This document shows positions 663-37,029 of a DNA stretch of 64,000 bases, one piece after another. The notes below the pieces were generated by a model, which was given only the letters and a program-made list of their open reading frames with translations, made no database searches and was not told the DNA's origin. A program made the translations under genes and the position numbers. This DNA is from Desulfatiglandales bacterium (GTDB lineage: Bacteria > Desulfobacterota > DSM-4660 > Desulfatiglandales > Desulfatiglandaceae): NCBI GenBank assembly GCA_963662465.1, contig OY759599.1, positions 3,424,001-3,488,000 on the forward strand. Direction: 5' to 3'. How positions within the stretch are numbered: the first letter of the stretch is position 1; every line of letters begins with the position of its first letter.

Positions 663-3600
663 TCATGCTGTTTCAAGGGTTGATGTTTTCACCCACAGAA
701 CAAAAATGAGCGGAATAAACAGTAGGGTCAAGAAGGTGCCCACGATAAGGCCGCCGATGGCCACTGCCCCAAGAGGCGCCAGACGTTCAAGACCGATGGC
801 GGACCCCAGGGCCACGGGAAGCATGCCGGCGGCAACCGCAAAGGCGGTCATCAGTACCGGTCGCGTGCGAATGCGGATGCTTTCAAGCATGGCCGCTTCC
901 GAGCTTAATCCGTCCGCCATCTTTTCCTGAGCAAAATGGATCAGCAAAATGGCGTTGTTCACAATAATGCCGGAGAGCAGAATAAACCCCATCATGGCGG
1001 GCATGGACACATGGTAATTGAGCAGCAGCAGGGTCCAGGAGGCGCCGATGAGGGTGAGGGGGATGGAAAGCACGATCATGAGGGCCACCTTGACGCTGTC
1101 AAACAGCGCCACCAGGGTGAAAAAGATCAATACCACGGCAAATCCGATGGCAAACGCCATTCTCCCCGCGGAGTTTTTGAACTGCTTCATGTCTCCGGTC
1201 TGTTCCATGGTTACCGACGGGGGCAGTTGAAAATCCTTAAAGGCGGTTTCAAAATCGGCCATGATATGGGTGATAGCGGCTTTTTCCCGTGAGGCGTAAA
1301 CATTCAGGGTGTAATTGAGCCCTTCCCGGGTGATCATGCCCGGTTCCGTTTCACTGCTGACGGAGGCCACGGCCCCAAGGGGAATTTTCCCTTTCGGGGA
1401 ATCCAGCAAGGTCGCCTGAATCACCGCCAGGGTATTGCGGTTCATTTCGGGGACCCAGACGCGGACGCCGAAGTCAACGCTGTTTTTAAGGGGAAATGAG
1501 GCGACCCGGGCGCCGCGCAGAACCGCCTGGATCCGGCGTGAAATATCCGCGCCGGTCAATCCGTAAAAGGCGGCCCGTTCCGGGTTGATATCCAGATTAT
1601 AGACGGTTTTGTCATTGGACCAGGTTCTGGAGACGGAAGCCAGCCCCGGGGTTTTGTAAAGGGCTTTTTCCACCCGGTTTCCGGCTGTTTCAAGGTCTTT
1701 AAAGCTGGGGCTGGACAGCATGACGTCAATATTGGCGCGAATACTGGAAAGCGCCGTGGCCCCGTAATCCACCACTTCGAGCCTTTTGAGGTTCTCTATG
1801 CGGGCCATCAGGGGCCGCAAACGCCGTTCCATTTCCCAAACGGATGCCTTCCTTTTGTACCGGTCCACATAGGTAGCGGTGATGGCCATGTGATCGATGC
1901 CGCTGCCGCTGCCGATGCTGAGGACGCCGGGTTCACTGCCGATGGCGGATGACAGGCGCAACAGCCGGCCGTTTTCTCCCAGAATCCTGTCGGCCGCTTT
2001 CACCATTGCCTGACTTTTTTCAATGGGAAGGTTGGGATCGGCCACCATGTTCACCTTGATCCCGCCGGTGTCCATGGGGGGCATCAACTCCTGGCCCACA
2101 AGGGGCATGACCATGCGCATGCTGATCACAAAAAGAGCGGCCAGGACCAGGAAATAGGCCATGGACACCATTTTATACTTCAACCCGAGAGTCACCGCCA
2201 TGCTGAAAAAGGCCTGGATACGGTTGTTGATACGGCCGGTGATGCGTTGAAAAAAATCCTCCAGTCGAAGGATAAAGGGTTGATCGATGGCCAGGATTTT
2301 GAGGGACAACAAGGGGACCGCCGTAATGGAGATGACGTAGGATGCCGCCAGTGCCAGCAGCAGGGTCGCAGCCAGGGGCCGAAAGACGGTCTGGGGGTAG
2401 CCGCCCACAAAGAGGATGGGGGCCAGCGCGATCATGGTGGTCATGGTGCCGGACAGATCCGCGAACATGATCTCCCGAGTGCCCGCAAGAACCGCTTTGT
2501 CAATGGCGCCTTGCCGGGTTTGATAATGCCGTTCAATGTTTTCCATGACCACCACCGCATCATCCAGGAGCAGGCCGAGGGCCAGGATAATGCCCGTTAG
2601 CGTGACCACGTTGAACTCGATCCCTACCATCCACATGAGCGCAATGGTGCTCGCATAGACCATGGGGATGGTCAACAGCACCACCAGCACCTGTCTGAAA
2701 CTGGCCAGAAAGAAAAAGACCACCAGGGTGCTCATGATGATGGCATCCCGCAACGATTCAAACATGTTTTCCATGCTCTGAACGATGAGTTCCTTCTGGG
2801 TATCGGTGATTTCAAACTTCAGATCCGCGTATTTTGCCCTCATATCATCCAGCTTTTCTTCCACCCGGGTGACGGTTCTGATCACATCCGCATCGCGACC
2901 CCGTTGGATGGACAGGGCAATGGCCGGCTTTCCATTGCCGTAATAGGCGGCGGTATTCTCATCATGGCCGAAATAGATGCGGCTCACATCGCCTAACCGT
3001 ACATCGGGCGTCAGGCGAAGGGACCGAAGCCCTGGAACGGTCTCTTCTTTTCCGGGAGATTTCAGGAGATAACGGTCTTTTTCGCTGGTGATAAAACCGA
3101 TGGCGTAATCCTTGTCGTTTTGTTGCAGCACCCCCATTACCGTTCCAAGACCCAGGCCGTATTGATCCAGGGTTTTCTTGTCGATGATGATCTGCACTTC
3201 TTTTTGATAGCCGCCGAAGATATCCACATTGGCCACGCCCGGGATTTTGATCAAATCATGCTTCAGTTGGTTTTCCGCAAGCTGTCGAATGTCGGTGAGG
3301 GGAATGGTTTCGCTGCTGATGCCCACCACCAGGATTGGGGCCGTGGCGGCCGATATTTTGTGGAGCTGAGGTTCCATGAGGTCTTGGGGAAGTCTGGAAC
3401 GGATTTTGTTGATGGCATTTTCCACATCGGCGGCGGCCATATCCAGGTTCTTGGTGTATTCAAATTCCGCCCGGATCACCGACACTTCATCGATGGTGGT
3501 GGAATAAACCCTTCGGATTTTATCAAGGGTGTACAGTTCCTCCTCCACGGGAACGGCAATGTTGGCGGCAATGGTCTTGGCGGAGGCGCCGGGCTGCACC

Positions 3601-3752
3601 ATAACAACGGCAATTTCAGGGTAATTGGATTCCGGGAAGAGGTTTCGGGCGACGTTTTTGTAGCCTACAACCCCCAGGAATACAAACATGACCAGAAAGG
3701 AGTAGATAAAATAGGGGCGTTGCAACAGCCTCTCAATCCAGGATTTATTCAC
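663..3752 (-). CDS. RND efflux permease, AcrB/AcrD/AcrF family
   Basis: ~1030 aa with two TM bundles. Motifs GLLLDDAVVVMENI, GIIVNNAILL and RTRPVLMT. GTG at 3752 has a GGAG RBS and overlaps the MFP stop; ATG 3767/3788 are alternatives. Confidence 0.95.
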   Translation of the reverse strand: MNKSWIERLLQRPYFIYSFLVMFVFLGVVGYKNVARNLFPESNYPEIAVVMVQPGASAKTIAANIAVPVEEELYTLDKIRRVYSTTIDEVSVIRAEFEYTKNLDMAAADVENAINKIRSRLPQDLMEPQLHKISAATAPILVVGISSETIPLTDIRQLAENQLKHDLIKIPGVANVDIFGGYQKEVQIIIDKKTLDQYGLGLGTVMGVLQQNDKDYAIGFITSEKDRYLLKSPGKEETVPGLRSLRLTPDVRLGDVSRIYFGHDENTAAYYGNGKPAIALSIQRGRDADVIRTVTRVEEKLDDMRAKYADLKFEITDTQKELIVQSMENMFESLRDAIIMSTLVVFFFLASFRQVLVVLLTIPMVYASTIALMWMVGIEFNVVTLTGIILALGLLLDDAVVVMENIERHYQTRQGAIDKAVLAGTREIMFADLSGTMTTMIALAPILFVGGYPQTVFRPLAATLLLALAASYVISITAVPLLSLKILAIDQPFILRLEDFFQRITGRINNRIQAFFSMAVTLGLKYKMVSMAYFLVLAALFVISMRMVMPLVGQELMPPMDTGGIKVNMVADPNLPIEKSQAMVKAADRILGENGRLLRLSSAIGSEPGVLSIGSGSGIDHMAITATYVDRYKRKASVWEMERRLRPLMARIENLKRLEVVDYGATALSSIRANIDVMLSSPSFKDLETAGNRVEKALYKTPGLASVSRTWSNDKTVYNLDINPERAAFYGLTGADISRRIQAVLRGARVASFPLKNSVDFGVRVWVPEMNRNTLAVIQATLLDSPKGKIPLGAVASVSSETEPGMITREGLNYTLNVYASREKAAITHIMADFETAFKDFQLPPSVTMEQTGDMKQFKNSAGRMAFAIGFAVVLIFFTLVALFDSVKVALMIVLSIPLTLIGASWTLLLLNYHVSMPAMMGFILLSGIIVNNAILLIHFAQEKMADGLSSEAAMLESIRIRTRPVLMTAFAVAAGMLPVALGSAIGLERLAPLGAVAIGGLIVGTFLTLLFIPLIFVLWVKTSTLETA

Positions 3753-4830
3753 CCGCTTCTTCTCCATGAATAATTTGCACGGAGCCATAACTGGGAAGCA
3801 GGCTCAGCTTGGCCTCCGGGCCAAGGGCCACCGGGGAGGACGGACAGGGTTCGATGAGGGCCCGGGTCTCGTTTTGCCCCAGGATTCTGATGGGAAAAGG
3901 GGTGAACCGCTGGTTTTCATACACCATGACCTGTTCCCCTTCCTTTTGATGCAAAACTGCGTTTACAGGTACAACACATCCTTCTCCGGTAAAGACCACC
4001 ACATCGATGGAGAGATAACTGCCGTCGGGTTGATCAAGGAGTTGGCCAGGGGGCTGGTCGAGAACGACCTCGGCCTCGAAAAGAGCGTTTTTCGCATCGC
4101 TGTACCGTTTTAGGACCGTTCCGATTTTTTCTTTCCCCAGAAAAACCGCCTGGCCCGGGGAAATGGGAGGGGTATCCGGCACATAACTGAAGGTGAGTTT
4201 CCGGTCCGGAGAATGGAGGGTTAAAAGGGGTTGACCGGGGGTCGCCAGATTCCCCTTTCGCAAAAAAACCGTTGCGACAATGCCGTCAAAGGGCGCGCGA
4301 ATGTTTAAATAATCCAACTGGATTTTTTGCGCCGCAATTTTCTGGCGGGTCGCTTCCACGGCCGCCTGTTTACCGGCTTGGGCCACCGCTGACGCTTCCA
4401 GTTTTTCCCGGGCCAGACCCCCTACCTTAAAAATGGCCTGATTACGGGCATGCAAACCGTTGGTATAGTTCAAGTCCGCTTCCTGGGATTTCAGGGTTTC
4501 CTCAAGGGACTTTATGGCGGATAGAATCTCCCGATCATCGATTTGAACCAGCAGATCCCCTTTTTTGACCGGCTGATTTTCGGTTACCCGAACAGCCATG
4601 ATGAGACCACTCAATCTTGAAGCGATATGTGCCGTGTCGACGGATGTCAATTGCGCCAAAAATGGCCTCGTCCGGCGCAGGGATGATTCCCTGGGTGAAA
4701 CAGTCTTCACGGAAACAGCCATGGGGATCGGGACGGGGGCATCTTTTGCTTCCTGCATCCGTTTTTTGAGCAGAACCCCGGCGCCCGCAATAAGCCCCGC
4801 CGCCAGCAATATGAAAATGATTTTCTTCAT
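3745..4830 (-). CDS. RND efflux periplasmic adaptor (membrane fusion protein)
   Basis: N-terminal anchor, lipoyl-like halves (VKKGDLLVQID ... IRAPFDGIV) around a coiled coil; lies between TolC and the RND permease. Confidence 0.92.
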   Translation of the reverse strand: MKKIIFILLAAGLIAGAGVLLKKRMQEAKDAPVPIPMAVSVKTVSPRESSLRRTRPFLAQLTSVDTAHIASRLSGLIMAVRVTENQPVKKGDLLVQIDDREILSAIKSLEETLKSQEADLNYTNGLHARNQAIFKVGGLAREKLEASAVAQAGKQAAVEATRQKIAAQKIQLDYLNIRAPFDGIVATVFLRKGNLATPGQPLLTLHSPDRKLTFSYVPDTPPISPGQAVFLGKEKIGTVLKRYSDAKNALFEAEVVLDQPPGQLLDQPDGSYLSIDVVVFTGEGCVVPVNAVLHQKEGEQVMVYENQRFTPFPIRILGQNETRALIEPCPSSPVALGPEAKLSLLPSYGSVQIIHGEEAGE

Positions 4831-9498: not shown

Positions 9499-9951
9499 TT
9501 ATGTGCGGTTTTTTTCCTGATCATCTCGTTCGCCAAAAACAGCAATCTCCGCGCAAAGTTTTTTCACTGCGTTTTCAAAAATGGATGGATGTGGTATCAT
9601 CTTTAATCTTTCAGTTACGTTTCGTATTGACATGATTATTTTACCGCCAAAATCGTCTTGCCGATTTTTCAGCATTTGAATTAACGCATCGCCGGCAAGA
9701 ATTCTGGCGTCGTAGTAAGTGTTGTCATCGTCCAGTATGCTGAGAACCTGGTGAATCAACTGATGGGACGGGCGTTGAATCTCTCCGACCCGTTTTAGCA
9801 CCTCCTCGCGAAGCCGCCAGTTTCCCTTGTGTTTCAGTATCCGAATCAGACCGGCCTGACATTCCGGTAGTTTGCCGGCGTTCGCCAGTTCATCAAGGAT
9901 ATCCAGAACCGCCTCCCAATTATTGAGGTCTCCAAAGGGATCTTGCTTCAT
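9499..9951 (-). CDS. Hypothetical alpha-helical (HEAT-like) protein
   Basis: 150-aa ORF translationally coupled to the antiporter stop; NWRLREEVL and DARILAGDAL are HEAT-like. Confidence 0.7.
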   Translation of the reverse strand: MKQDPFGDLNNWEAVLDILDELANAGKLPECQAGLIRILKHKGNWRLREEVLKRVGEIQRPSHQLIHQVLSILDDDNTYYDARILAGDALIQMLKNRQDDFGGKIIMSIRNVTERLKMIPHPSIFENAVKKLCAEIAVFGERDDQEKNRT

Positions 9952-10710
9952 TGAACTGCTCCTTCGCAGGCATCGTCCTTACGCAGTGAAGACGATGCCA
10001 TGAGAAAAAATGAATTCCTGTCCTGGTCATTTCCGATAATCGCGACCAGGTCTTCAGGCTCCAAAACAAAGTCGGCATCGGGATTGGCTTTTAAGACGCC
10101 TTCCCGGACAACGCCGACGATGGATACCCCCGTTTTTTTGCGTATTTCGCTCTTGTCGATCGTCCCATGGGCCATGGGACTTTCCTGCGCCAAACGGACC
10201 CATTGCAAATCGAATTGTTGCTCGGCGCCTCGGAGTTGGGACAATAAGCGATACTTGTCATTGTTATTAAGCAAAGCGGCATAGCGTTCCTGTCGAATGG
10301 TATCCGTGTGGCGTTGGACTTCCGTCGGCGGAACCCTCAAATGGAGAAGGGCCTGTCGCGTCATTTCGAGGCCCGCCTCGAATTCCGGAAGAACGATTTG
10401 CGCCACCCCCAGATCTTTAAAAACATCGAAATAATCCGGGCCGGATGCTCGTGCAATTATTTCGAGCCTCTCATTTAGCCGTTTCGACTGAACCAGGGTC
10501 GATTTGGCAGCCACAACCCCGGGGATGGTTAAGATCAGAAGGGTCGCATCTTTGATTCCTGCCGCTTCAAGAACAATTTCCTGGCCGGCATCGCCATATA
10601 CAATAGCCAAACCAGCCGCCTTGGCTTGTTCAAAGCGCCGGTGGTCAAGCTCTATAATTACAAATGGCATACCGACCCGCTTCATGACCGTTGCTATCTG
10701 AAAACCCAAC
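9948..10710 (-). pseudogene. 3' half of an IS-interrupted CPA2/Kef-type cation:proton antiporter (TrkA-N and TrkA-C/RCK domains)
   Basis: IVYGDA...LEAAGI (RCK-N) and IRKKTGVSIVGV...NPDADFVL (TrkA-C); rejoins the 15436..16678 part in frame as GGGRLGFQIA once the IS is removed. Confidence 0.88.
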
Positions 10711-10961
10711 CTTCAACGCTAATCAAAACTGAACCAAGTTTGCTAATGGAAATTGAACCATTGGCTGTCACCGCCGGTGAGTACGGCCCTCAGGTATAGC
10801 GGACGATGAGGGATCCATAAGTGGCGGCAAAGGAGTCGTTGATGTAGATTTACTTTTCAATAAATTTTTATAAAATCTATTTTCTTTGGATTTGGTTTTC
10901 TTCTTCCAAGACAGAGGCTTGGTTAAGTGGAAATGCGATTTACTTTGTAGAATGGATGGTG

Positions 10962-10996
10962 AAGGCCCGAAGTAGCCGCTTCGGGCCTTCTTTTTT
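10962..10996 (+). terminator. Intrinsic terminator inside the IS21 leader
   Basis: AAGGCCCGAAG-TAGCCG-CTTCGGGCCTT then CTTTTTT; conserved in the second copy at ~34642-34675. Confidence 0.7.
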
Positions 10997-11072
10997 GACC
11001 ACCGGATAGAGCCGGAAGCCACACACACGCCAATTTTATATAAGTGTGTTTCCGGCCAATTGCAAGGCTGGA

Positions 11073-11489
11073 ATGATGGGAGATGTCCTTTTAAGAGTGG
11101 TTCAATGCCGATGTTGTGGTTGCTTTTTTCACGTCTGTCGGTCGTGTTGGCGTGGCCAGGCCTATTGTGGGGAACGATGTCGCAGGATACGCCAAAGACA
11201 GCTGCACCGGAAAGCTCAGGGGAAATACCGCAATTCGAAAAAAGGGAAAGAGCGCCGTCGTTTGTACGAAAAAACAAAAAAATCCAAAAAAAATGGACTG
11301 AACCCTGGTGATGATAGTTCAACACCTCAAAAAGACTGTGATATTGAACCCAAAAAGCGGTCGGGGAACCGACCCAGCTGTCTTTTTTGCGGGTCGATCG
11401 GGGTTGTTGTGGACCATTTTCCTCGCCGTGCTTATGCAGGGAGGGTTTTTTCAGATGTAACAGGCTTTGAGAAAACCCCATATCCATGA
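11073..11489 (+). CDS. Cys-rich basic hypothetical protein (putative zinc-binding), IS passenger
   Basis: CRCC..CRSC..YCGERC cluster, basic helix, C-terminal CLFC; first ORF of the element operon. Confidence 0.65.
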   Translation: MMGDVLLRVVQCRCCGCFFHVCRSCWRGQAYCGERCRRIRQRQLHRKAQGKYRNSKKGKERRRLYEKTKKSKKNGLNPGDDSSTPQKDCDIEPKKRSGNRPSCLFCGSIGVVVDHFPRRAYAGRVFSDVTGFEKTPYP

Positions 11490-11501
11490 CAGGAGAAAAA
11501 A

Positions 11502-11921
11502 ATGATCAAAAAAAGAGTCCTTTTTCCCGAAAGAGTGCGTGTCATCAATGGAAGCTTCGGCTTTCTGGAGCATCGTTTTTTGAGAAACGGCTTTTGGGAG
11601 AGCCTGAATCATCATGAGCTGCTGCTCTACATTTTTCTGGTGTTGGTATCTGACAAAAACGGGCTCTCTTATTATGGTTACGACAGAATCTGCCGGATTT
11701 TAAAGGTGCATTTGGATCAATATATCGATGCCCGCGATGGCTTGTTGGACAAGGATCTGATTGGGTTTGATGGCCGTCTGTTTCAGGTTCTTTCGCTTCC
11801 CAGACGTCCTGTGATTGTGAAACAGGTAAAGGAGATCCGGCAAGGAAATTGGGTCAGTCTTGGAGAAACCATAGAGGAAATCTTTCGGGAGACTGGGTAT
11901 GGAATCCATCCGAACCGTTGA
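11502..11921 (+). CDS. Hypothetical protein with a possible winged-HTH (replication-initiator N-terminal-like), IS passenger
   Basis: AGGAG RBS; LNHHELLLYIFL...GLSYYGYDRICRIL...ARDGLLDKDLI pattern resembles a wHTH. Confidence 0.7.
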   Translation: MIKKRVLFPERVRVINGSFGFLEHRFLRNGFWESLNHHELLLYIFLVLVSDKNGLSYYGYDRICRILKVHLDQYIDARDGLLDKDLIGFDGRLFQVLSLPRRPVIVKQVKEIRQGNWVSLGETIEEIFRETGYGIHPNR

Positions 11922-12783
11922 TATTCATTTGCTGGAGTTGCGTTACGCTCATTGCCGGATAATGAATCACCAGGCTTTAAAGCGATTGAGGGATTCCATC
12001 GAAACTTACGGGCAGATCGTTCCGGCCCTGGCTATTGAAGAAAAAGACAAACTGATTCTGATTGATGGCTACCTGCGTGTTCGAGCGCTTTGTGCTTGTG
12101 GAAAGGACCGGATATGTGTCCAATTCTCAAAAGAAAACGAACAAAATGCCATGTTTTCGCTTTTAACCAAGGCCAATGAACGGCAATGGGAAGTCATTGA
12201 GCAGTCTGTTTTACTTCAGGAATTACATCGGCGTTTTGGGTGCAGCCTCTCCCATATTGCAACCCGAATAGGGCGCGACAAGAGTTTTGTAAAACGGCGG
12301 CTGGACCTGGTTGAAGCCCTGCCGGAAAATATTTTGAGAACCGTGATTGCAGGCTCACTTTCAACCTGGGCTGCCAGCCGTGTCATGGCGCCGTTGGCGC
12401 GCGCCAACGGTGAAGACGCACAAAAACTGTTGGCCCACCTGGAAAAAGAACCTCTATCCACAAGGGAACTGGCCCGTTTCTACGCACATTACCAGAAAAG
12501 CAACCGGTCTGTTCGAGACCACATGCTGGAAAATCCATCCCTTTTCATAAAAGTTCTCGAACAAAGAACCCAGTCTAAACAAGCCAAAGAAGTTCATGAT
12601 GGACCGGAAGGCAAATGGTTCAAGGATATTGAAATGGTATATGCGGTTCTCAAACGTCTGGTGAAAACCGTTTCGCATGTCCATTACCCAAAAAGCGATC
12701 AGTTGAAGAAACAAACGCTCAAAACCTGGGTGAAAAAGATAGAAAAACAAGCACTGGAACTCAAGAAAGCGACCCAATTATGA
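11899..12783 (+). CDS. ParB/RepB/Spo0J-family domain protein, IS passenger
   Basis: LRDSIETYGQIVP and LIDGYLRVRA (ParB N-domain) followed by an HTH (SLSHIATRIGRDKSFVKRRL); overlaps the istA start. Confidence 0.85.
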   Translation: MESIRTVDIHLLELRYAHCRIMNHQALKRLRDSIETYGQIVPALAIEEKDKLILIDGYLRVRALCACGKDRICVQFSKENEQNAMFSLLTKANERQWEVIEQSVLLQELHRRFGCSLSHIATRIGRDKSFVKRRLDLVEALPENILRTVIAGSLSTWAASRVMAPLARANGEDAQKLLAHLEKEPLSTRELARFYAHYQKSNRSVRDHMLENPSLFIKVLEQRTQSKQAKEVHDGPEGKWFKDIEMVYAVLKRLVKTVSHVHYPKSDQLKKQTLKTWVKKIEKQALELKKATQL

Positions 12784-14162
12784 TCCGACAATCCAAAAAA
12801 GATGCCATTGTGGAATTGAAAAAAACCGGCATGAGTTTGCGCGACATCGCCAAAACCCTGAAGGCCGGTCGCAATACCGTCACGAAGGTTTTAGATGATC
12901 ATGACGAAGAGGCGGTACCCCAAAGGAACTCCCGGTATGAAGAACATGTCCCGTTGATCCGCGAGCTTTTCAAGGAATGTAAAGGAAATGCCGTGCGAGT
13001 AGCCGAGGAACTGGAAAGCCGCCAACAGATCAAAATCCCTTATCAGAGTCTGACCTGGATTATGAGAAAGTACGAGATCCGGGAACGTAAAAAAAGACGG
13101 GCGGGCCAATACCATTTTAAACCCGGTCAGGAGATGCAGCATGATACGTCACCCCATCTGGTTGTCATTAATGGGAAAAAAATGTCGACCCAGTGCGCGT
13201 CCCTGACCCTGGCCTTTTGCCGAAGGATTTTTATTCAGTATTACCCCTGTTTTACCCGGTTTGAGTGCAAGGTTTTCCTAAAAAAAGCATTCGAGTTTAT
13301 GGACGGGGTGTGTTCCCGGTGCATGGTTGACAACACCAATGTTATTGTGGCCGGCGGCACCGGGCCTGATGCATTGATTGCGCCTGAAATGAAATACTTC
13401 GGCGATATGTATGGAACCCGGTTTGAGGCCCATGCTGTAGGAGACGCCAATCGAAGTGCCCGTGTGGAAAGGCCTTTTCATTTTGTGGAAAACAATTTTC
13501 TTCCCGGTAGAACATTTGTTAGCTGGCAGGATTTGAACCGGCAGGCAATCGACTGGTGCCGGAATACAAGCGATAAAAAGTTTAAACGGGCTTTAGGGAT
13601 GACGCCGGATGAGGCCTATGTCATTGAAAAGCCATATCTCATTGATTTACCGGCATACCAGCCGCCAGTCTATGTGGCAGAACACAGGGTAGCCGATGTT
13701 CAGGGATATGTGCACTTGGACACCAACCGCTATTCAGTCCCTGAAGCGCTGATTGGGAACTCCCTGGAAGTACAGAAACATTGGCTCAAGGTCATCGTTT
13801 ACGACAAAAACACAAAAGTGGCGGAACATGACCGCATACTGGATAAACGCAACACCCGAACAACCCTGCCCGGTCACCATGTTCCCATTCGAAGAAAAAA
13901 AGATCCCCGAATCCCTTCAAAAGAAGAACAGCTGTTGACGGGAGAGGATGCCATCCTGGATGAGTATGTGGCTGAACTGAAGAAAAGAAGTCACGGTCGC
14001 GGTGTGGTCAAGTTACGTCGGTTGCTTCATCTGAAACGCACTTATCCCGGGGAACCTTTTTTGAAAGCCATAACACAGGCGCTTAAATATGGACTTTTTG
14101 ATTTGTCGCGTCTGGAAAACATTATTCTCGATTATATCGCGGGAGACTTTTTTGATCTATGA
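12780..14162 (+). CDS. istA: IS21-family DDE transposase IstA
   Basis: N-terminal HTH, PGQEMQHD / VDN / RVER DDE triad, and the C-terminal VHLDTNRYSVP Mu-transposase-like motif. Confidence 0.92.
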   Translation: MIRQSKKDAIVELKKTGMSLRDIAKTLKAGRNTVTKVLDDHDEEAVPQRNSRYEEHVPLIRELFKECKGNAVRVAEELESRQQIKIPYQSLTWIMRKYEIRERKKRRAGQYHFKPGQEMQHDTSPHLVVINGKKMSTQCASLTLAFCRRIFIQYYPCFTRFECKVFLKKAFEFMDGVCSRCMVDNTNVIVAGGTGPDALIAPEMKYFGDMYGTRFEAHAVGDANRSARVERPFHFVENNFLPGRTFVSWQDLNRQAIDWCRNTSDKKFKRALGMTPDEAYVIEKPYLIDLPAYQPPVYVAEHRVADVQGYVHLDTNRYSVPEALIGNSLEVQKHWLKVIVYDKNTKVAEHDRILDKRNTRTTLPGHHVPIRRKKDPRIPSKEEQLLTGEDAILDEYVAELKKRSHGRGVVKLRRLLHLKRTYPGEPFLKAITQALKYGLFDLSRLENIILDYIAGDFFDL

Positions 14163-14878
14163 AAAAGAAAATTGAACAGTTACTCATTGATTTGAAGTTT
14201 AAAGGCATGCTGAAGGCTCTCGAAGAACAGTTGGCTTCGGCTGAAAAGAACGGTTTTTCCATTCACGAGGTCATCTACAATCTCCTGGCTGAGGAATTAC
14301 GTTTCCGGCAGGAGCGCAGCATGATCTATCGGGTCCAGATTGCAAAGCTTCCATGGGAATGGACCCTCAACTCCTTTCCGTTTGATCTTCAGCCGGGAAT
14401 ACAGAAGAGCCGGATCATGACGTTGTCCGGCCTTGACTTTATCAGCCGAAGAGAAAACATCGTGTTCCATGGAAAAACCGGCGTCGGCAAAACGGGATTG
14501 GCCGTGGGGATCCTTCGTCAAGCCATTATTGCCGGGTACCGGGGGCGTTTTTATAATGTTCAGGATTTGCTGGATCAGCTCTATGCGTCTTTGGCAGATC
14601 GGTCCACCCCGAAACTCCTCAATGCCCTTTGCAGATATGACCTGCTTCTGCTCGATGAACTGGGATACCTGACCCTCAAAAAAGAGCAGATGAACGCCTT
14701 TTTTAAACTCATGAAAGATCGCTATGAAGCCGGTCGGTCCACAATTATTACGACCAATCTTCAACCTGAACAATGGTATTCGCTGCTTGAACCAAAGGAC
14801 ATGGTCGATGCCTTGCTGGATCGTCTCAACCATCGCTGCATCAACATTCATATTGATGGTCCTTCCCTCAGAAAATGA
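14159..14878 (+). CDS. istB: IS21-family helper AAA+ ATPase IstB
   Basis: Walker A GKTGVGKT, Walker B LLLLDELGY, STIITTN and ALLDRLNH. Confidence 0.94.
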   Translation: MKKKIEQLLIDLKFKGMLKALEEQLASAEKNGFSIHEVIYNLLAEELRFRQERSMIYRVQIAKLPWEWTLNSFPFDLQPGIQKSRIMTLSGLDFISRRENIVFHGKTGVGKTGLAVGILRQAIIAGYRGRFYNVQDLLDQLYASLADRSTPKLLNALCRYDLLLLDELGYLTLKKEQMNAFFKLMKDRYEAGRSTIITTNLQPEQWYSLLEPKDMVDALLDRLNHRCINIHIDGPSLRK

Positions 14879-14976
14879 GATGTTCGCCAAAGGGCCGGTT
14901 TTGAGGTCTGAATATCACCGGTCTGTTTGAATCTCGTTACACGAATATCAGAAATTACCTTGTCTTGGAGCTTGAA

Positions 14977-15174
14977 ATGAGAGGTGGAAAACGGGTAGGC
15001 GCCGGCCGAAGAAAGAAACCGGAACATTTGAGACGTGAACTGCTCACCATTCGTCTCCCCAAATGGATGATTCTACAGCTGAAAAAAAACGGGGAAATTG
15101 GATATTTGATTGAGGATCAATTGGCGAAGGGAGGCCTCCTGAATTTACCGGACGACTATGACATAGACAAATAG
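14977..15174 (+). CDS. Small basic protein (RGG-R-GAGR motif; possibly RHH-like DNA-binding), IS passenger
   Basis: GGAG RBS; MRGGKRVGAGRRKKP...LTIRLPKW. Confidence 0.6.
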   Translation: MRGGKRVGAGRRKKPEHLRRELLTIRLPKWMILQLKKNGEIGYLIEDQLAKGGLLNLPDDYDIDK

Positions 15175-15435
15175 TTCCTCAATAAGCATTGCCCTTAACC
15201 GAAAAATCTAATCCCCTCTTCTCTGCCATCACCATATTGATGGTATCCTCATCACTGATTCTTCAACCAGAACGCTACGTGTCTCACCAGCATTTTTAAA
15301 ATACCATCTGATATACTCTTTCATGCAACCTCTAACAAATTTACAAGAAAACCCTTCTAAAAGGAAAAGACCAGTGCGCAATATCTGGTTCCGTTTGGAG
15401 TAGCAAAACTGGTTCCATTTTGGTTAGCGCCCAAG

Positions 15436-16678
15436 AACCCAACCGACCGCCGCCGGCAATAACGGCATGGTTCTTAAGCCCGGTGTCGGGTATGCTTGAC
15501 GACTCAAGCGGTTCATGACGAAACCAACGCTTTTTCAATGCATACAGCCGCGCAGTCTGGCCTGAAACCAATGGGGTCAGCACCATCGTCAAGACGGTAG
15601 TGGTCAGTATCAAAGCGTAGAGATCGTTGTTTATCGAATGGGTCGATAGCCCCAGGCGCGCCAACACGAACGAAAACTCGCCAATCTGAAACAGACCCAG
15701 CCCAACGGCCAGCGGGATCACGTTGCCGTATCTGAAAATCCGAACGATGACCGCGAAAATGATGCCCTTGCCGATACCGACGGCCAGCACCAGGGCAATC
15801 ACCTGCCCGAAATGATCCACCAGAAAAACCGGGTCCAAGAGCATGCCGACCGAGGTGAAAAACAACAGCCCAAAAAGATCACGAAGGGGAATGATATCGC
15901 TCAGGGCTTGATAGCCATAGTCGGATTCGCTTAGCACCATGCCGGCGACAAACGCACCAAAGGCAAAGGAAAGCCCCAGCATGTGCGTAACATACCCTAT
16001 GCCCAAACCGATGGCGGTGATGGCAAGCAAGAAGAGTTCCCGCGAACCCAGGTTGGCGATATGCGTCATCAGTCGCGGCAAAAGCCGGGTGCCCAGCAAG
16101 ATCATTCCCGCGATAAAACCAGCCGCTTTTACCGCGGCGAAACCGATGGCAGGCAAACCTACCGCCGGGTTGTTCAGTTGAGGGAGGATAATCATCATGG
16201 GGATCACAGCCAGATCCTGAACGATGAGCATTCCAATCATCACCTTGCTGGAAAGGGCGCCTAACCAGCCCTGGTTCATCAGCGTCTTGAGGATCACCAT
16301 GGTGCTCGAAAGGGAAATAAGGGCCCCGAGCCACAGTGACGCTTTCCAATCCCATCCCATCAAGTGCCCGATACATAAACCAAAACCAATGGTAAGGGTC
16401 ATCTGGATAGGCGTACCGATCAAAGCCGCCTTTTTTACCGGTTTGAGATCTTTGAGGGAAAACTCAAGCCCCAGCGCGAACAGAAGCAGGGCCACGCCTA
16501 TCTCGGCAAGCAATTCGATTTCGTGAATGTTGGAAACCGTAAGCCCCCCGGTATGGGGTCCCAAAATGACCCCTGCCGCGATATAACCCAGGATTAGCGG
16601 CTGGCCGAGTCGCTGCATAATCATGCCGCAAAAAAATGCCGCAACGATAAGAAGTATGATGTCGGTCGCAATACCCAT
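15436..16678 (-). pseudogene. 5' half of an IS-interrupted CPA2/Kef-type (YbaL/RosB-like) antiporter
   Basis: [41 protein letters not shown] and [10 protein letters not shown] motifs; ends at the IS junction within the GxGxxG motif. Confidence 0.9.
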
Positions 16679-16846
16679 TTTACCGCATCCCATGCCTTGG
16701 GCAAAATTCATTTAAGATGTCGGCATCGGCGGGCAACATATAACACGTTGGCTGCTCCATGCATGCCTTCACCCTGGAATATTTGTCGTTATTCCTTCAC
16801 GGCAGTAACGCATCCCGTTATGCGTTAAGTACCAATGTAAAATCAA

Positions 16847-34229: not shown

Positions 34230-34440
34230 TTTAAGTATTATCATTAGAAATGTTTTATATTCAAACCGTTAGCCACCCCTACCCTTGCTGAAGGAACTGC
34301 AGGAACAGGATATTTAGAAAAATTGCTAAATGGCATGTAGCATATTTTCGAAATGAAAGACCAGCCACGCATCACAATCTGAAATGGCACGTGACGAGGA
34401 TGATGAATTTTAAGGGGGCTTGAAAAAAGAATTGGGTCAA

Positions 34441-34702
34441 TTGGCTGTCACCGCCGACAAGTATGGAACCCATGTACGGCGATTGATACGGGACCCACAT
34501 GGCGGTATAGGGAGAACTTGATGTAGATTTATTTTTCTAAATTTTTTTATAAAATCTATTTTCTTTGGGTCTGGTTTTTTTTCTTTTCAGGCAAAAGTCT
34601 TGGGAGTAAGAGATCAGATTTGTTTTGGGAGATGGATGTGAAAGGCCCGAAGTAGCCGCTTCGGGCTTTTTTTTTGACCGTCAGATAGAGCCGGAAGCCA
34701 CA
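34441..34702 (+). repeat. Diverged second copy of the IS21-element non-coding leader (10761..11023)
   Basis: Shared blocks TTGGCTGTCACCGCCG, TTGATGTAGATTTA, TTTTTATAAAATCTATTTTCTTTGG, GGCCCGAAGTAGCCGCTTCGGGC and GATAGAGCCGGAAGCCACA in the same order and spacing. Confidence 0.88.
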
Positions 34703-35406: not shown

Positions 35407-35640
35407 GTCAACTACCCCTCCTGAATCAAAGATTCAGAAGGGGCTTGTAAAAGCCCAAGTTGACTAGCCTAAGTCTTAACTGACTACGTTCGGCAGGATG
35501 TAGATACCTTTGGATGTAATCGCCAGTCCAAAGCTCTATCGTGGCTCTGTAAAAGCTCTGTGAGGTAGGAGCGGTCAACCACAGTGCGAAGCTTGCTGAA
35601 CATTGGCGAGGCGAACTTTACCCCTCTTCGGAGGGTGCGA
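35407..35640 (+). ncRNA. omegaRNA (HEARO-like) scaffold; the guide would be the flanking sequence immediately 5' of 35407
   Basis: GTCAAC...GTTGACTAGCCTAAG...CTACGTT...GGATG..CCAGTCC..CTCT...AACATTGGCGAGG...ACC hallmarks directly upstream of iscB. Confidence 0.85.
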
Positions 35641-35658
35641 ATAACCAAAAGATTTTTT

Positions 35659-37029
35659 ATGAAAGTGTATGTCAAATCAAAATCAGGAACTTGGCTGATG
35701 CCGACAAATCCCGCCAATGCCAGGATTATGCTCAAGCAGGGAAAGGCCAGGGTGATTCAGAGAACACCGTTTACGATCCAGCTTTTATATGAAACTACCG
35801 AGTATATTCAGCCTGTGACAGTGGGGATTGATGATGGAGGGATCAATATCGGGATAGCGGCAGTTTCAAACGGAAAGGTTCTATTTCAACAGGAAGTTGT
35901 TTTACGCTCGGATATTAAGTCGAAACTGGGTACCCGGAGGCAATACCGGAGATCCAGAAGAAATCGAAAAACAAGGTATCGAAAGGCAAGATTTCTGAAC
36001 CGAAAACAGTCCACACCAGTTTGTAAAGTATGCGGAGGCAATGCGCCGGCTTCAAAGATACTCTGTAGAAGGTGCCTGAATGCAGTGGGAGGCGTTCATC
36101 AAAAATATGCGGAGGTTAAGAAGGCAACTTTTCGGATTCCTCCGTCAATCAAGGCAAAGAAAGATATGATTGCCAGGATAGTAAAACAAATACCATTACC
36201 GATATCGAAAATCATTCTGGAAGATGTCTATTTCGATTTTCAGGCAATGGAGAACCCCGGTATTTCAGGGGAACAATATCAGCACGGAGATTTACTTTAT
36301 CATAAGAATTTCAAACAGGCATGTATGGTCCGAGACAAATTCAAATGTCGTGTCTGTGGAACACAATCACGTCTACAATGTCATCACATCAAGGCAAGAT
36401 CGAAAGGAGGAACTGATAAACTGTCAAACCTGATGAGCTTGTGTGAAAAATGCCATGATCGGCGCCACAAAGAAGGTCTGAAACTTCCCAGGCAGAAAAG
36501 CGCTTTCTATATTTCAGCGGCGCATGTTCAACAAGGGAAAAACTATTTACGGAGAAAATTATCTCAAATAGCGCCATTAACAACGACGTTTGGATACATC
36601 ACAGCCCATTACCGAAATAAAGCTGGGATAGAAAAATCACATGTGAACGATGCCGTTATAATTGCAAATAAGCAGGCGACGCCTGTTAATCTGCAAATCA
36701 CAACCAGACATGTGCAGGCACGGAAACGAAGTTTGCATGAAGCAACCGCAAGAAAGGGGCAAAAAACACCGAATCAAACGCAAAAGCGGAACAACAAAAA
36801 CGTTTTCACTCTCAAGGAATTCCGCCGTTGGGATACGGTAAGCTACAAAGGGAAGACTGGGTTTATTTCAGGATTCTCGGGATCTTCAGCATGTCGGATT
36901 GTCGATATCCATGGTGATTACATAAAAAATCCGACTAAAAAATACACCCAGGTCAATCTAAGTGAGGTGGTTTTAATTTGCAGGAACCAGACAAGCATAA
37001 GTCAGCAACGCCAATTCCTCCCCCACTGA
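35659..37029 (+). CDS. iscB: IscB RNA-guided endonuclease (456 aa) with a Cys4 insertion
   Basis: WLMP (PLMP) domain, RuvC-I VGIDDG, Arg-rich bridge helix RRQYRRSRRNR, RuvC-II ILEDVYFD, HNH (CRVC..HHI..GG..N..LCEKCH), RuvC-III SHVNDA. Confidence 0.93.
   Translation: MKVYVKSKSGTWLMPTNPANARIMLKQGKARVIQRTPFTIQLLYETTEYIQPVTVGIDDGGINIGIAAVSNGKVLFQQEVVLRSDIKSKLGTRRQYRRSRRNRKTRYRKARFLNRKQSTPVCKVCGGNAPASKILCRRCLNAVGGVHQKYAEVKKATFRIPPSIKAKKDMIARIVKQIPLPISKIILEDVYFDFQAMENPGISGEQYQHGDLLYHKNFKQACMVRDKFKCRVCGTQSRLQCHHIKARSKGGTDKLSNLMSLCEKCHDRRHKEGLKLPRQKSAFYISAAHVQQGKNYLRRKLSQIAPLTTTFGYITAHYRNKAGIEKSHVNDAVIIANKQATPVNLQITTRHVQARKRSLHEATARKGQKTPNQTQKRNNKNVFTLKEFRRWDTVSYKGKTGFISGFSGSSACRIVDIHGDYIKNPTKKYTQVNLSEVVLICRNQTSISQQRQFLPH

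Follow-up and report, generated by a model that had tools for sequence, protein, structure and literature searches.

A distinct IS21-family sub-lineage with a co-inherited ParB-like gene and a conserved palindrome, a candidate parS-like site, inside that gene

Introduction

What is a ParB-like gene doing in an insertion sequence of a family that is normally made of two genes? The question is raised by a 64,000-nucleotide stretch of DNA from a Desulfatiglandales bacterium (contig OY759599.1, positions 3,424,001 to 3,488,000; hereafter the window, numbered from its first base), in which an IS21-type element of 4725 bp occupies positions 10711 to 15435. Canonical IS21 elements carry istA and istB only and measure about 2 to 2.5 kb. 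The element studied here has six plus-strand open reading frames (ORFs), in the order zinc-ribbon gene, winged-helix gene, ParB-like gene, istA, istB, and small basic ORF. The initial annotation of this DNA had treated the four extra genes as one accessory set coupled to istAB and as core machinery rather than random cargo, with end synapsis, target selection, or upkeep of a circular intermediate as conceivable roles.

We report that the element belongs to a distinct, widespread sub-lineage of the IS21 family with a core of five parts: the zinc-ribbon protein, the ParB-like protein, a palindrome in the ParB-like gene, IstA, and IstB. The palindrome, which the initial annotation had missed, is the most telling feature. 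On balance we think it probable that this palindrome is a parS-like site that lets the ParB-like protein act on the element encoding it, with control of transposition through the operon as the likeliest effect.

Co-inheritance of the ParB-like gene and IstA

A query of genome contigs with IstA returned 41 loci. The complete ones, from metagenome-assembled genomes (MAGs) of Desulfatiglandales and Desulfobacteraceae and from strain NaphS2 (IstA 85 to 100% identical), have the gene order of the window. Identities to NaphS2 are 46% for the zinc-ribbon protein, 73% for the winged-helix protein, 84% for the ParB-like protein, and 92% for IstB; the small ORF is missing from the NaphS2 relatives, which are 86% identical. 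A contig with 50% IstA identity encodes the zinc-ribbon protein, the ParB-like protein, IstA, and IstB and lacks the winged-helix gene. For the ParB-like protein, 984 relatives (protein clusters) were found at E <= 0.001 among 3974 candidates; the best 120 of the 984 are all at least 49% identical, and they lie mostly on contigs of 1 to 5 kb, as repeats do. A query of metagenome contigs with the ParB alignment gave at least 545 confirmed stretches, and the metagenome counts that follow refer to the best 80 of these.

IstA starts within 200 bp downstream of the ParB-like gene in 62/62 metagenome loci with room for it (a complete ParB C-terminus and 300 bp beyond), a result that shows that the ParB-like gene needs IstA and not the reverse, as the loci were found by the ParB query. 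Upstream, an ORF with the zinc-ribbon motif adjoins the ParB-like start in 58 of the 66 loci with 650 bp of room. The other eight are three frameshifted copies, two loci with a different Cys-rich protein of 228 amino acids (aa), and three truncated loci. The winged-helix gene is present in 10/66 loci and the small basic ORF in 8 of the 22 with room. The idea that the extra genes are conserved machinery rather than random cargo is therefore sustained for the ParB-like and zinc-ribbon genes and is not supported for the winged-helix gene and the small ORF. Nor do the four genes make up a single accessory unit, given these low counts and a small ORF that is missing in NaphS2 and found also in other mobile elements.

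The 228-aa Cys-rich protein, which has no Pfam match, replaces the zinc-ribbon ORF in two ParB-IstA-IstB loci (L074, positions 4096 to 4782, and L076, positions 3454 to 4140), and a piece related to it lies upstream of the ParB-like gene in the more distant locus L162. Close relatives of the element also occur in a Planctomycetota MAG (L013, IstA 90% identical) and in a Thermoplasmatales archaeon MAG (L049, IstA 50% identical), which reflects either wide horizontal spread or mis-binned short repeat contigs. A tblastn search of PLSDB plasmids with the ParB-like protein gave no match.

The converse dependence was approached from the side of IstA, in 400 further genomes sampled from the phylum. 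Four of these contain the ParB-like gene, with IstA downstream of it in 3/3 cases with room and a zinc-ribbon ORF detected in 2. IstA matches at E <= 1e-20 occur in 18 of the 400 genomes, and those of at least 50% identity (three matches, 50 to 55%) only in genomes with the ParB-like gene, so that close IstA homologues devoid of it, which had been named as a possible objection, were not seen; that a close IstA needs ParB rests on this smaller phylum sample. In the tier of 31 to 36% IstA identity, IstA of genome G206 is preceded by a more divergent ParB-like gene (profile E 2.9e-25) and genome G284 has no such gene, and matches of 22 to 27% identity are without a ParB-like gene. In the G206 loci (L162/L166; IstA 31% identical), a large Cys-rich ORF is followed by the ParB-like gene, IstA, and IstB, and the gene after IstB is an ORF of 193 aa that has a CHC2 zinc finger of the DnaG type.

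Phylogeny gives the same picture. In a tree of 46 IstA proteins (quick method, LG+G4, with some long branches), the IstA of the window clusters with other IS21-type IstAs, and a branch with SH-aLRT support of 97 separates 36 ParB-linked proteins, together with one of unknown context (L146), from 9 unlinked ones. Congruence of ParB and IstA, proposed at the outset as a check, is borne out by pairwise distances across 35 elements (Mantel r 0.90; 0/2000 permutations as high). The ParB-like protein evolves the faster of the two, with a mean p-distance of 0.53 vs 0.43 for IstA.

The palindrome inside the ParB-like gene

A palindrome scan of the element found two, a hairpin in the leader and a perfect 20-bp palindrome, CCGTTGGCGCGCGCCAACGG, at positions 12391 to 12410. 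Its 16-bp core (12393 to 12408) is unique in the window, even at 3 mismatches. The palindrome covers the codons P-L-A-R-A-N of the ParB-like gene, which form a conserved motif of the ParB-like family, and its DNA is almost unchanged across about 100 loci. Protein constraint was controlled for with 55 ParB representatives at <90% identity, reaching down to 33% identity to the window protein. Across these, the most frequent codon at the palindrome has a share of 0.87 for CCG, 0.98 for TTG, 0.98 for CGC, 0.96 for GCC, and 0.91 for AAC; elsewhere, conserved degenerate columns have a mean share of 0.51, and other Leu and Arg columns range from 0.24 to 0.63. In windows of five codons, the share of identical codons is 0.87 at the palindrome vs a gene mean of 0.33 (standard deviation 0.11). 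The corresponding maxima in istA (0.76) and istB (0.68) both fall at catalytic motifs rich in Met or Trp.

The exact 16-mer is present in 31/55 representatives, and the outer positions of the core vary in several. Some of the changes keep the symmetry: L054 carries GATTGCGCGCGCAATG, in which two pairs are altered, and L124 carries CCTGGCACGTGCCAAC, in which one pair is altered synonymously. The most distant example is the G206 element (L162): its aligned codons, K-F-I-R-I-N, contain GTTTATACGTATAAAC, a perfect palindrome of 16 bp that keeps the register and differs in four pairs, each altered on both sides. Because of the codon conservation and the symmetric double changes, GTTTATACGTATAAAC at the aligned codons among them, the comparison indicates that selection has acted on a symmetric DNA or RNA element at this position of the gene from a time before the window and G206 lineages separated.

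The ParB-like protein

The gene that contains the palindrome (11899 to 12783, plus strand) encodes 294 aa with a ParB N-domain, an HTH_ParB domain, and a helical C-terminus. The HTH domain scores above the family cutoff (PF17762, 29 bits vs 22.6), and some relatives have PF02195 in their precomputed domain list. A profile of 16 family members aligns over positions 27 to 205 with solved chains of ParB, Spo0J, and Noc through the N-domain, the HTH, and the middle domain (E 3e-17 to 1e-12). Matches to KorB, a ParB-family protein, are weaker: PF08535 reaches E 0.02 and 15.3 bits, below its cutoff of 22.3, and KorB in the Protein Data Bank (PDB) matches the profile at E 0.006 to 0.009.

The parS site is a 16-bp spacer-less palindrome framed GTT...AAC, and one of the parS sites of Bacillus subtilis lies in spo0J. 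Binding of the palindrome by the ParB-like protein is suggested by this format, by kinship with proteins that bind parS, and by the precedent of a parS inside spo0J.

Other genes and the leader

The zinc-ribbon gene (11046 to 11489, plus strand) encodes a Cys-rich protein of 147 aa with an N-terminal four-Cys motif, two basic helices, and a second CxxC toward the C-terminus. Its predicted model (pLDDT 75) runs from a zinc ribbon through two long basic helices and a disordered linker to the second CxxC element. No family was found for it in Pfam, NCBIfam, or PHROGs, the protein atlas placed it in unnamed clusters only, and 22 family members searched against Pfam gave scattered matches at chance level. 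A fold search with the model returned nothing at E <= 0.001, the top match being the YacG zinc finger at E 3.6. The zinc-ribbon proteins of the relatives fall into at least three subtypes that have only the N-terminal four-Cys motif in common. A predicted complex of this protein with the ParB-like protein scored 0.00, which carries no weight either way.

The winged-helix gene (11502 to 11921, plus strand; 139 aa) is a clade-specific accessory. Its product matches HTH_36 weakly (E 5.5e-5) and is predicted to fold as a winged helix with moderate confidence (pLDDT 68). The fold search with this model met generic winged helices only, at E >= 0.08, and the sequence profile found nothing in the PDB below E 0.6.

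The gene for IstA (12780 to 14162, plus strand; 460 aa) encodes an IS21-type DDE transposase, and that for IstB (14159 to 14878, plus strand; 239 aa) an AAA+ helper ATPase. The original assignment to IS21 stands: IstB exceeds the cutoff of NF038214 (225 bits vs 200) and matches PF01695 at E 3.5e-59, and IstA matches NF033546 over residues 12 to 292 at E 1.9e-37, with 129.4 bits under a curated cutoff of 160. The Mu-transposase C-terminal barrel (Mu-transpos_C_2) of IstA is above its cutoff (E 9.6e-17). The reported gene order and overlaps are likewise as first described, with 23 nucleotides (nt) shared by the winged-helix and ParB-like genes, 4 nt by the ParB-like gene and istA, and 4 nt by istA and istB; a 12-nt gap follows the first gene.

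The small basic ORF (14965 to 15174, plus strand) encodes 69 aa without a family match. Paralogues elsewhere in the same genome share 72 to 79% DNA identity with it. Two of them stand in tandem between a 901-aa IstA-like ORF and IstB in another IS21-type element (G000:C1:5957365-5961449), and others lie beside large serine-recombinase-like genes, including near G000:C1 3320675. The small ORF is an optional module that recurs in mobile elements of its own genome.

The leader, 335 bp long, precedes the first gene. It contains a promoter-like site that matches the consensus (TTTACT-16-TAAAAT, 10849 to 10876, plus strand) and, about 85 nt past it and still ahead of the first gene, a terminator-like hairpin (10961 to 10997, plus strand) with a 12-bp G+C-rich stem, a 6-nt loop, and a T run. 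Both blocks are kept in relatives whose adjacent leader has diverged. The stem is invariant across diverged relatives, without covariation, and the hairpin is found only in the clade whose zinc-ribbon protein is of the short subtype. Its possible roles are attenuation, termination of a short leader RNA, or protection from transcription that enters from outside. The consensus fold of the leader gives the terminator-like hairpin only, again without covariation, and so lends no support to a structured leader RNA. The sole Rfam match over 10400 to 15800 is Mu-gpT-DE at chance level (E 0.25). A relic of such a leader, 76% identical and without genes, lies elsewhere in the window at 34440 to 34702; it begins within the inner left sub-repeat, takes in the promoter-like block and the hairpin, and is probably the stump of a related element.

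The element, its ends, and its copies

The element moves as a unit and is an autonomous, recently very active insertion sequence. A search of its own genome (8.16 Mb) with positions 10711 to 15435 found 21 full-length copies of 99.5 to 100% identity with identical start and end bases, as well as interrupted and truncated copies. Nineteen of the full-length copies are 4725 bp long and differ from one another at 15 positions only. The other two, of 4744 bp (G000:C1:174103-178846 and 360993-365736), have 19 bp extra in the tail after istB (576 vs 557 aligned bases). Target duplications flank 17/21 copies, with a length of 8 bp in 7, 7 bp in 8, 6 bp in 1, and 5 bp in 1. The four copies without one (G000:C1 3972926, 4239691, 5347739, and 5892000) suggest rearrangement by recombination between copies. 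No target preference is evident at the insertion sites of the copies, and the G+C content of the targets is 0.47 vs 0.50 for the genome.

The element is bounded by imperfect inverted repeats, each about 50 bp long and containing two 19-bp sub-repeats at a spacing of 24 bp, of the form GCTAA-N-AAA-N-GAACCA. The left terminal repeat (10711 to 10760, plus strand) contains L1 (10718 to 10736) and L2 (10742 to 10760), and the right one (15386 to 15435, minus strand) contains R1 (15410 to 15428) and R2 (15386 to 15404). These terminal repeats were read by eye from the sequence; the repeat finder did not list them because the arms are too imperfect for its seeds. The doubled motif recurs at the ends of relatives, which measure about 3.7 to 4.7 kb end to end, and the sub-repeats are presumed to be IstA binding sites.

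At the window copy, the 8-bp target-site duplication AACCCAAC occupies 10703 to 10710 on the left and 15436 to 15443 on the right, and a ninth base also matches, which leaves the cut ambiguous by one base. On either side of the element, minus-strand ORFs represent the two halves of a Kef-type transporter gene: the C-terminal part, with TrkA_N and TrkA_C, lies at 9948 to 10709, and the N-terminal part, with Na_H_Exchanger, at 15436 to 16711, within a listed ORF (15341 to 16711) that extends into the element. When the element and one copy of the duplication are removed in silico, a single open frame of 676 aa results. A natural empty site is found in a contig of public run X1, which joins 10702 to 15436 and skips 4733 bases, with 9 bases that fit either side. 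The unit that the initial annotation had delimited by its two ends, two sub-repeats per end, 8-bp duplication, and rebuildable host gene is thus confirmed by the 21 copies with the same boundaries, the rebuilt frame, and the empty site. The window insertion is polymorphic among data sets that share one organism label.

The contig depth in run X1 is 32 at the empty site and about 1116 to 1143 in the element. The ratio of element to flank corresponds to about 35 copy-equivalents, vs about 25 in the assembly, a rough comparison since X1 is another lineage and contig depth is imprecise; the excess may reflect additional chromosomal copies or extrachromosomal ones. Contigs from the RNA libraries of runs X7 and X9, which may contain DNA, cover parts of a 97 to 98% identical variant, one of them with flank. 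Elsewhere in the window, positions 35584 to 37029 (plus strand) hold a 481-aa ORF with RRXRR (E 1e-50) and HNH domains, by appearance an IscB-type nuclease.

Discussion

We propose that IstA and IstB would move the element as in IS21, with IstA binding the repeated 19-bp sites of both ends and IstB delivering target DNA, to leave duplications of 7 to 8 bp without evident sequence preference. A dimer of the ParB-like protein would bind the 16- to 20-bp palindrome in the middle of its gene, as a chromosomal ParB binds parS, and would act in cis on the element that encodes it. It might do so as a roadblock, or as a clamp of the KorB kind able to act on the leader promoter some 1.5 kb upstream. 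The role of a small partner, at the promoter or at the ends, would fall to the zinc-ribbon protein and, in this clade, to the winged-helix protein as well, and the output of transposase would drop as copies build up. We infer these steps with a confidence that falls from binding of the palindrome by a ParB-like dimer, through action in cis, to control of the transposase operon. A bolder version, rather unlikely in our view, is a ParB/parS switch adopted by the transposon, in which dimers would load, spread or slide, mark the DNA in cis, and license or block IstA and IstB; the clamp would be gated by nucleotide, and the zinc-ribbon protein would represent a novel type of partner for such a clamp.

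Several observations weigh against a parS-like site that controls the operon, in addition to the one-sided nature of the 62/62 count and the limited phylum sample. The GERRxRA box is replaced by (L/I)DGYLRxxA in 16/16 aligned ParB-like members (DGYLR in the window protein), and a box III of the ENLQR type is not kept, only an Arg and a Glu further on being present. The N-domain match to PF02195 (ParB_N) is weak (E 0.12), and the protein scores 44 bits against TIGR00180, short of the cutoff of 58.45. Because the GERR box and box III are not kept and these two matches are weak, action as a CTP clamp appears doubtful, and the clamp property of ParB N-domains, which the initial annotation had cited, is not simply transferable to this protein. 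At the site itself, T occurs at core position 5 and/or 12 in 12/55 representatives and breaks that symmetric pair. No further half-site is present in the element beyond the palindrome, the leader and ends included, and across the window half-site matches number 10 vs 14.4 expected; action at the leader or ends would therefore need sliding, looping, or a partner. The promoter call is by consensus match, and the number of such matches in the region does not exceed that in shuffles. Finally, the palindrome could be conserved as an RNA hairpin or as the site of another protein, which conservation alone cannot tell apart.

Of the other explanations, the one that survives best, though we consider it clearly unlikely, is that the palindrome-bound ParB-like protein is an architectural part of the transpososome and required for transposition, either in the manner of the internal enhancer of phage Mu or as a mark that pairs ends on the same DNA. 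IstA and IstB are of the MuA/MuB kind, as seen from the Mu-transpos_C_2 domain; the site is internal in all relatives, at distances of 1.7 kb (left end) and 3.0 kb (right end); and strict co-inheritance with IstA suits an essential part better than a dispensable brake. However, canonical IS21 elements are described, in the available excerpts of the literature, as transposing with IstA and IstB alone, the IstA studied here has all the usual domains, and the palindrome bears no sequence likeness to the end repeats.

We regard it as improbable that the palindrome is an mRNA hairpin (for stability, processing, or pausing before istA) or the site of a host protein, with the ParB-like protein binding elsewhere or non-specifically. 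The 20-mer is fully self-complementary and lies within the operon transcript, compensatory changes suit a hairpin as well as a dimer site, and the change of C16 to T (T in 5/55 representatives) would retain a G-U pair. By contrast, the T5/T12 variants would put a U-C or U-U mismatch mid-stem in 11/55 representatives. The spacer-less 16-bp palindrome framed GTT...AAC has, moreover, the format of parS, and the protein encoded by the gene around it has, as its nearest relatives of solved structure, proteins that bind sites of this kind.

It is quite improbable that the accessory genes maintain an excised circle or extrachromosomal copy, with the winged-helix protein as initiator and ParB plus palindrome serving partition or retention. 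The best fold matches of the winged-helix model, none of them significant, include plasmid Rep initiators and Cdc6/ORC winged helices; the IS21-type element L162 carries part of a DnaG-type CHC2 primase; and the depth excess in run X1, rough and from another lineage, would also fit. Against this, none of the six ORFs of the element encodes ParA by Pfam and NCBIfam matches, and the ParB-like protein lacks the ParA-binding motif (L/F/I)G(K/R)G(L/F/I) given in the available text of PMC12704722. Iterons or an origin were not seen in the element, the winged-helix gene is confined to 10/66 loci, and no joint of right end to left end was seen in contigs, a weak point since contigs drop rare forms. 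That the extra genes are passenger cargo for the host or for retention (e.g., addiction or anti-defence), with no part in transposition, is very improbable indeed: orphan ParB-like genes are common on mobile elements generally (main text of PMC12704722), but here order and adjacency are fixed in 62/62 loci, the ParB-like protein co-diverges with IstA and has one origin on the IstA tree, a cis site is held under selection inside the module, and the genes form one operon with istA, which they overlap or adjoin.

Elements of the IS21 family make short target duplications of 4 to 8 bp. Like the canonical members IS21 and IS5376, the element has IstA and IstB in overlapping frames, multi-site terminal repeats, and duplications of a few base pairs (5 to 8 here). 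It differs in being 4.7 kb and thus about twice as long, in its six ORFs with up to four extra genes, in a 335-bp leader with a terminator-like hairpin, in an IstA that scores 129 vs 160 bits, and in the zinc-ribbon gene, ParB-like gene, and internal palindrome conserved across its whole sub-lineage. With chromosomal ParB/Spo0J-parS and with Noc-NBS it shares the N-domain, HTH, and middle domain, as well as a 16-bp GTT...AAC palindrome in the protein's own gene. It departs from them in the absence of ParA and of a ParA-binding motif, in its altered nucleotide boxes, and in having one site per element, and a role in segregation is not expected. Phage Mu has an internal enhancer (internal activation sequence) that is bound by transposase and repressor. 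The resemblance to Mu (MuA, MuB, enhancer, repressor/Ner) lies in a transposase with an AAA+ ATPase, small upstream regulators that bind DNA, and a cis site inside the element, whereas the Mu enhancer is not bound by a ParB-type protein and the present element is an insertion sequence and not a phage.

Two further precedents come from other kinds of mobile element. On plasmid RK2, KorB is a ParB-family CTP clamp that, with KorA or TrbA, silences promoters at a distance and is locked by a small partner (available text of PMC11790492 and PMC13584720). From that description, the likeness is that of an orphan-acting ParB-type protein on a mobile element, with a palindromic loading site at a distance from the promoter and with neighbouring genes for small DNA-binding proteins. 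In the present element the KorB-domain match is weak, GERR is absent, the potential partners are of unrelated families, the cargo is a transposase operon, and the system is known from sequence alone. BisD of ICEclc is a ParB-like CTP clamp that activates distant genes (available text of PMC12409273). It is likewise a ParB-like regulator devoted to the life cycle of an integrated mobile element; it differs in serving a conjugative element and in activating transfer competence, and the two are likened here by description only. A 2025 survey of the ParB-CTPase fold found orphan ParBs to be enriched on mobile elements (PMC12704722), and in its main text the terms 'transpos', 'IS21', and 'IstB' do not occur. 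In full-text searches of the literature we found no description of an IS21-type element with a ParB-like gene; a deposited ISfinder entry is possible.

What is new, then, is a conserved palindrome within a ParB-like gene and the combination of ParB and zinc-ribbon proteins with IstAB, which occurs widely in sediment bacteria. IS21 serves as a structural model of a transposase with a dedicated AAA+ ATPase and has been described as a two-gene system; in this sub-lineage two more proteins and a cis site are co-inherited with it. The known uses of the ParB fold on mobile elements, which cover plasmids, phages, and conjugative elements, are thereby extended to insertion sequences, and the sites GTTGGCGCGCGCCAAC and GTTTATACGTATAAAC with their proteins provide a natural pair of diverged variants for studies of specificity. 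If the bolder proposal of a transposon-adopted switch is true, this would be the first ParB/parS module devoted to transposition, and the clamp would set when, and from which copy, the element moves. For the bacterium itself, at least 21 near-identical copies in a genome of 8 Mb make the element a main driver of genome rearrangement.

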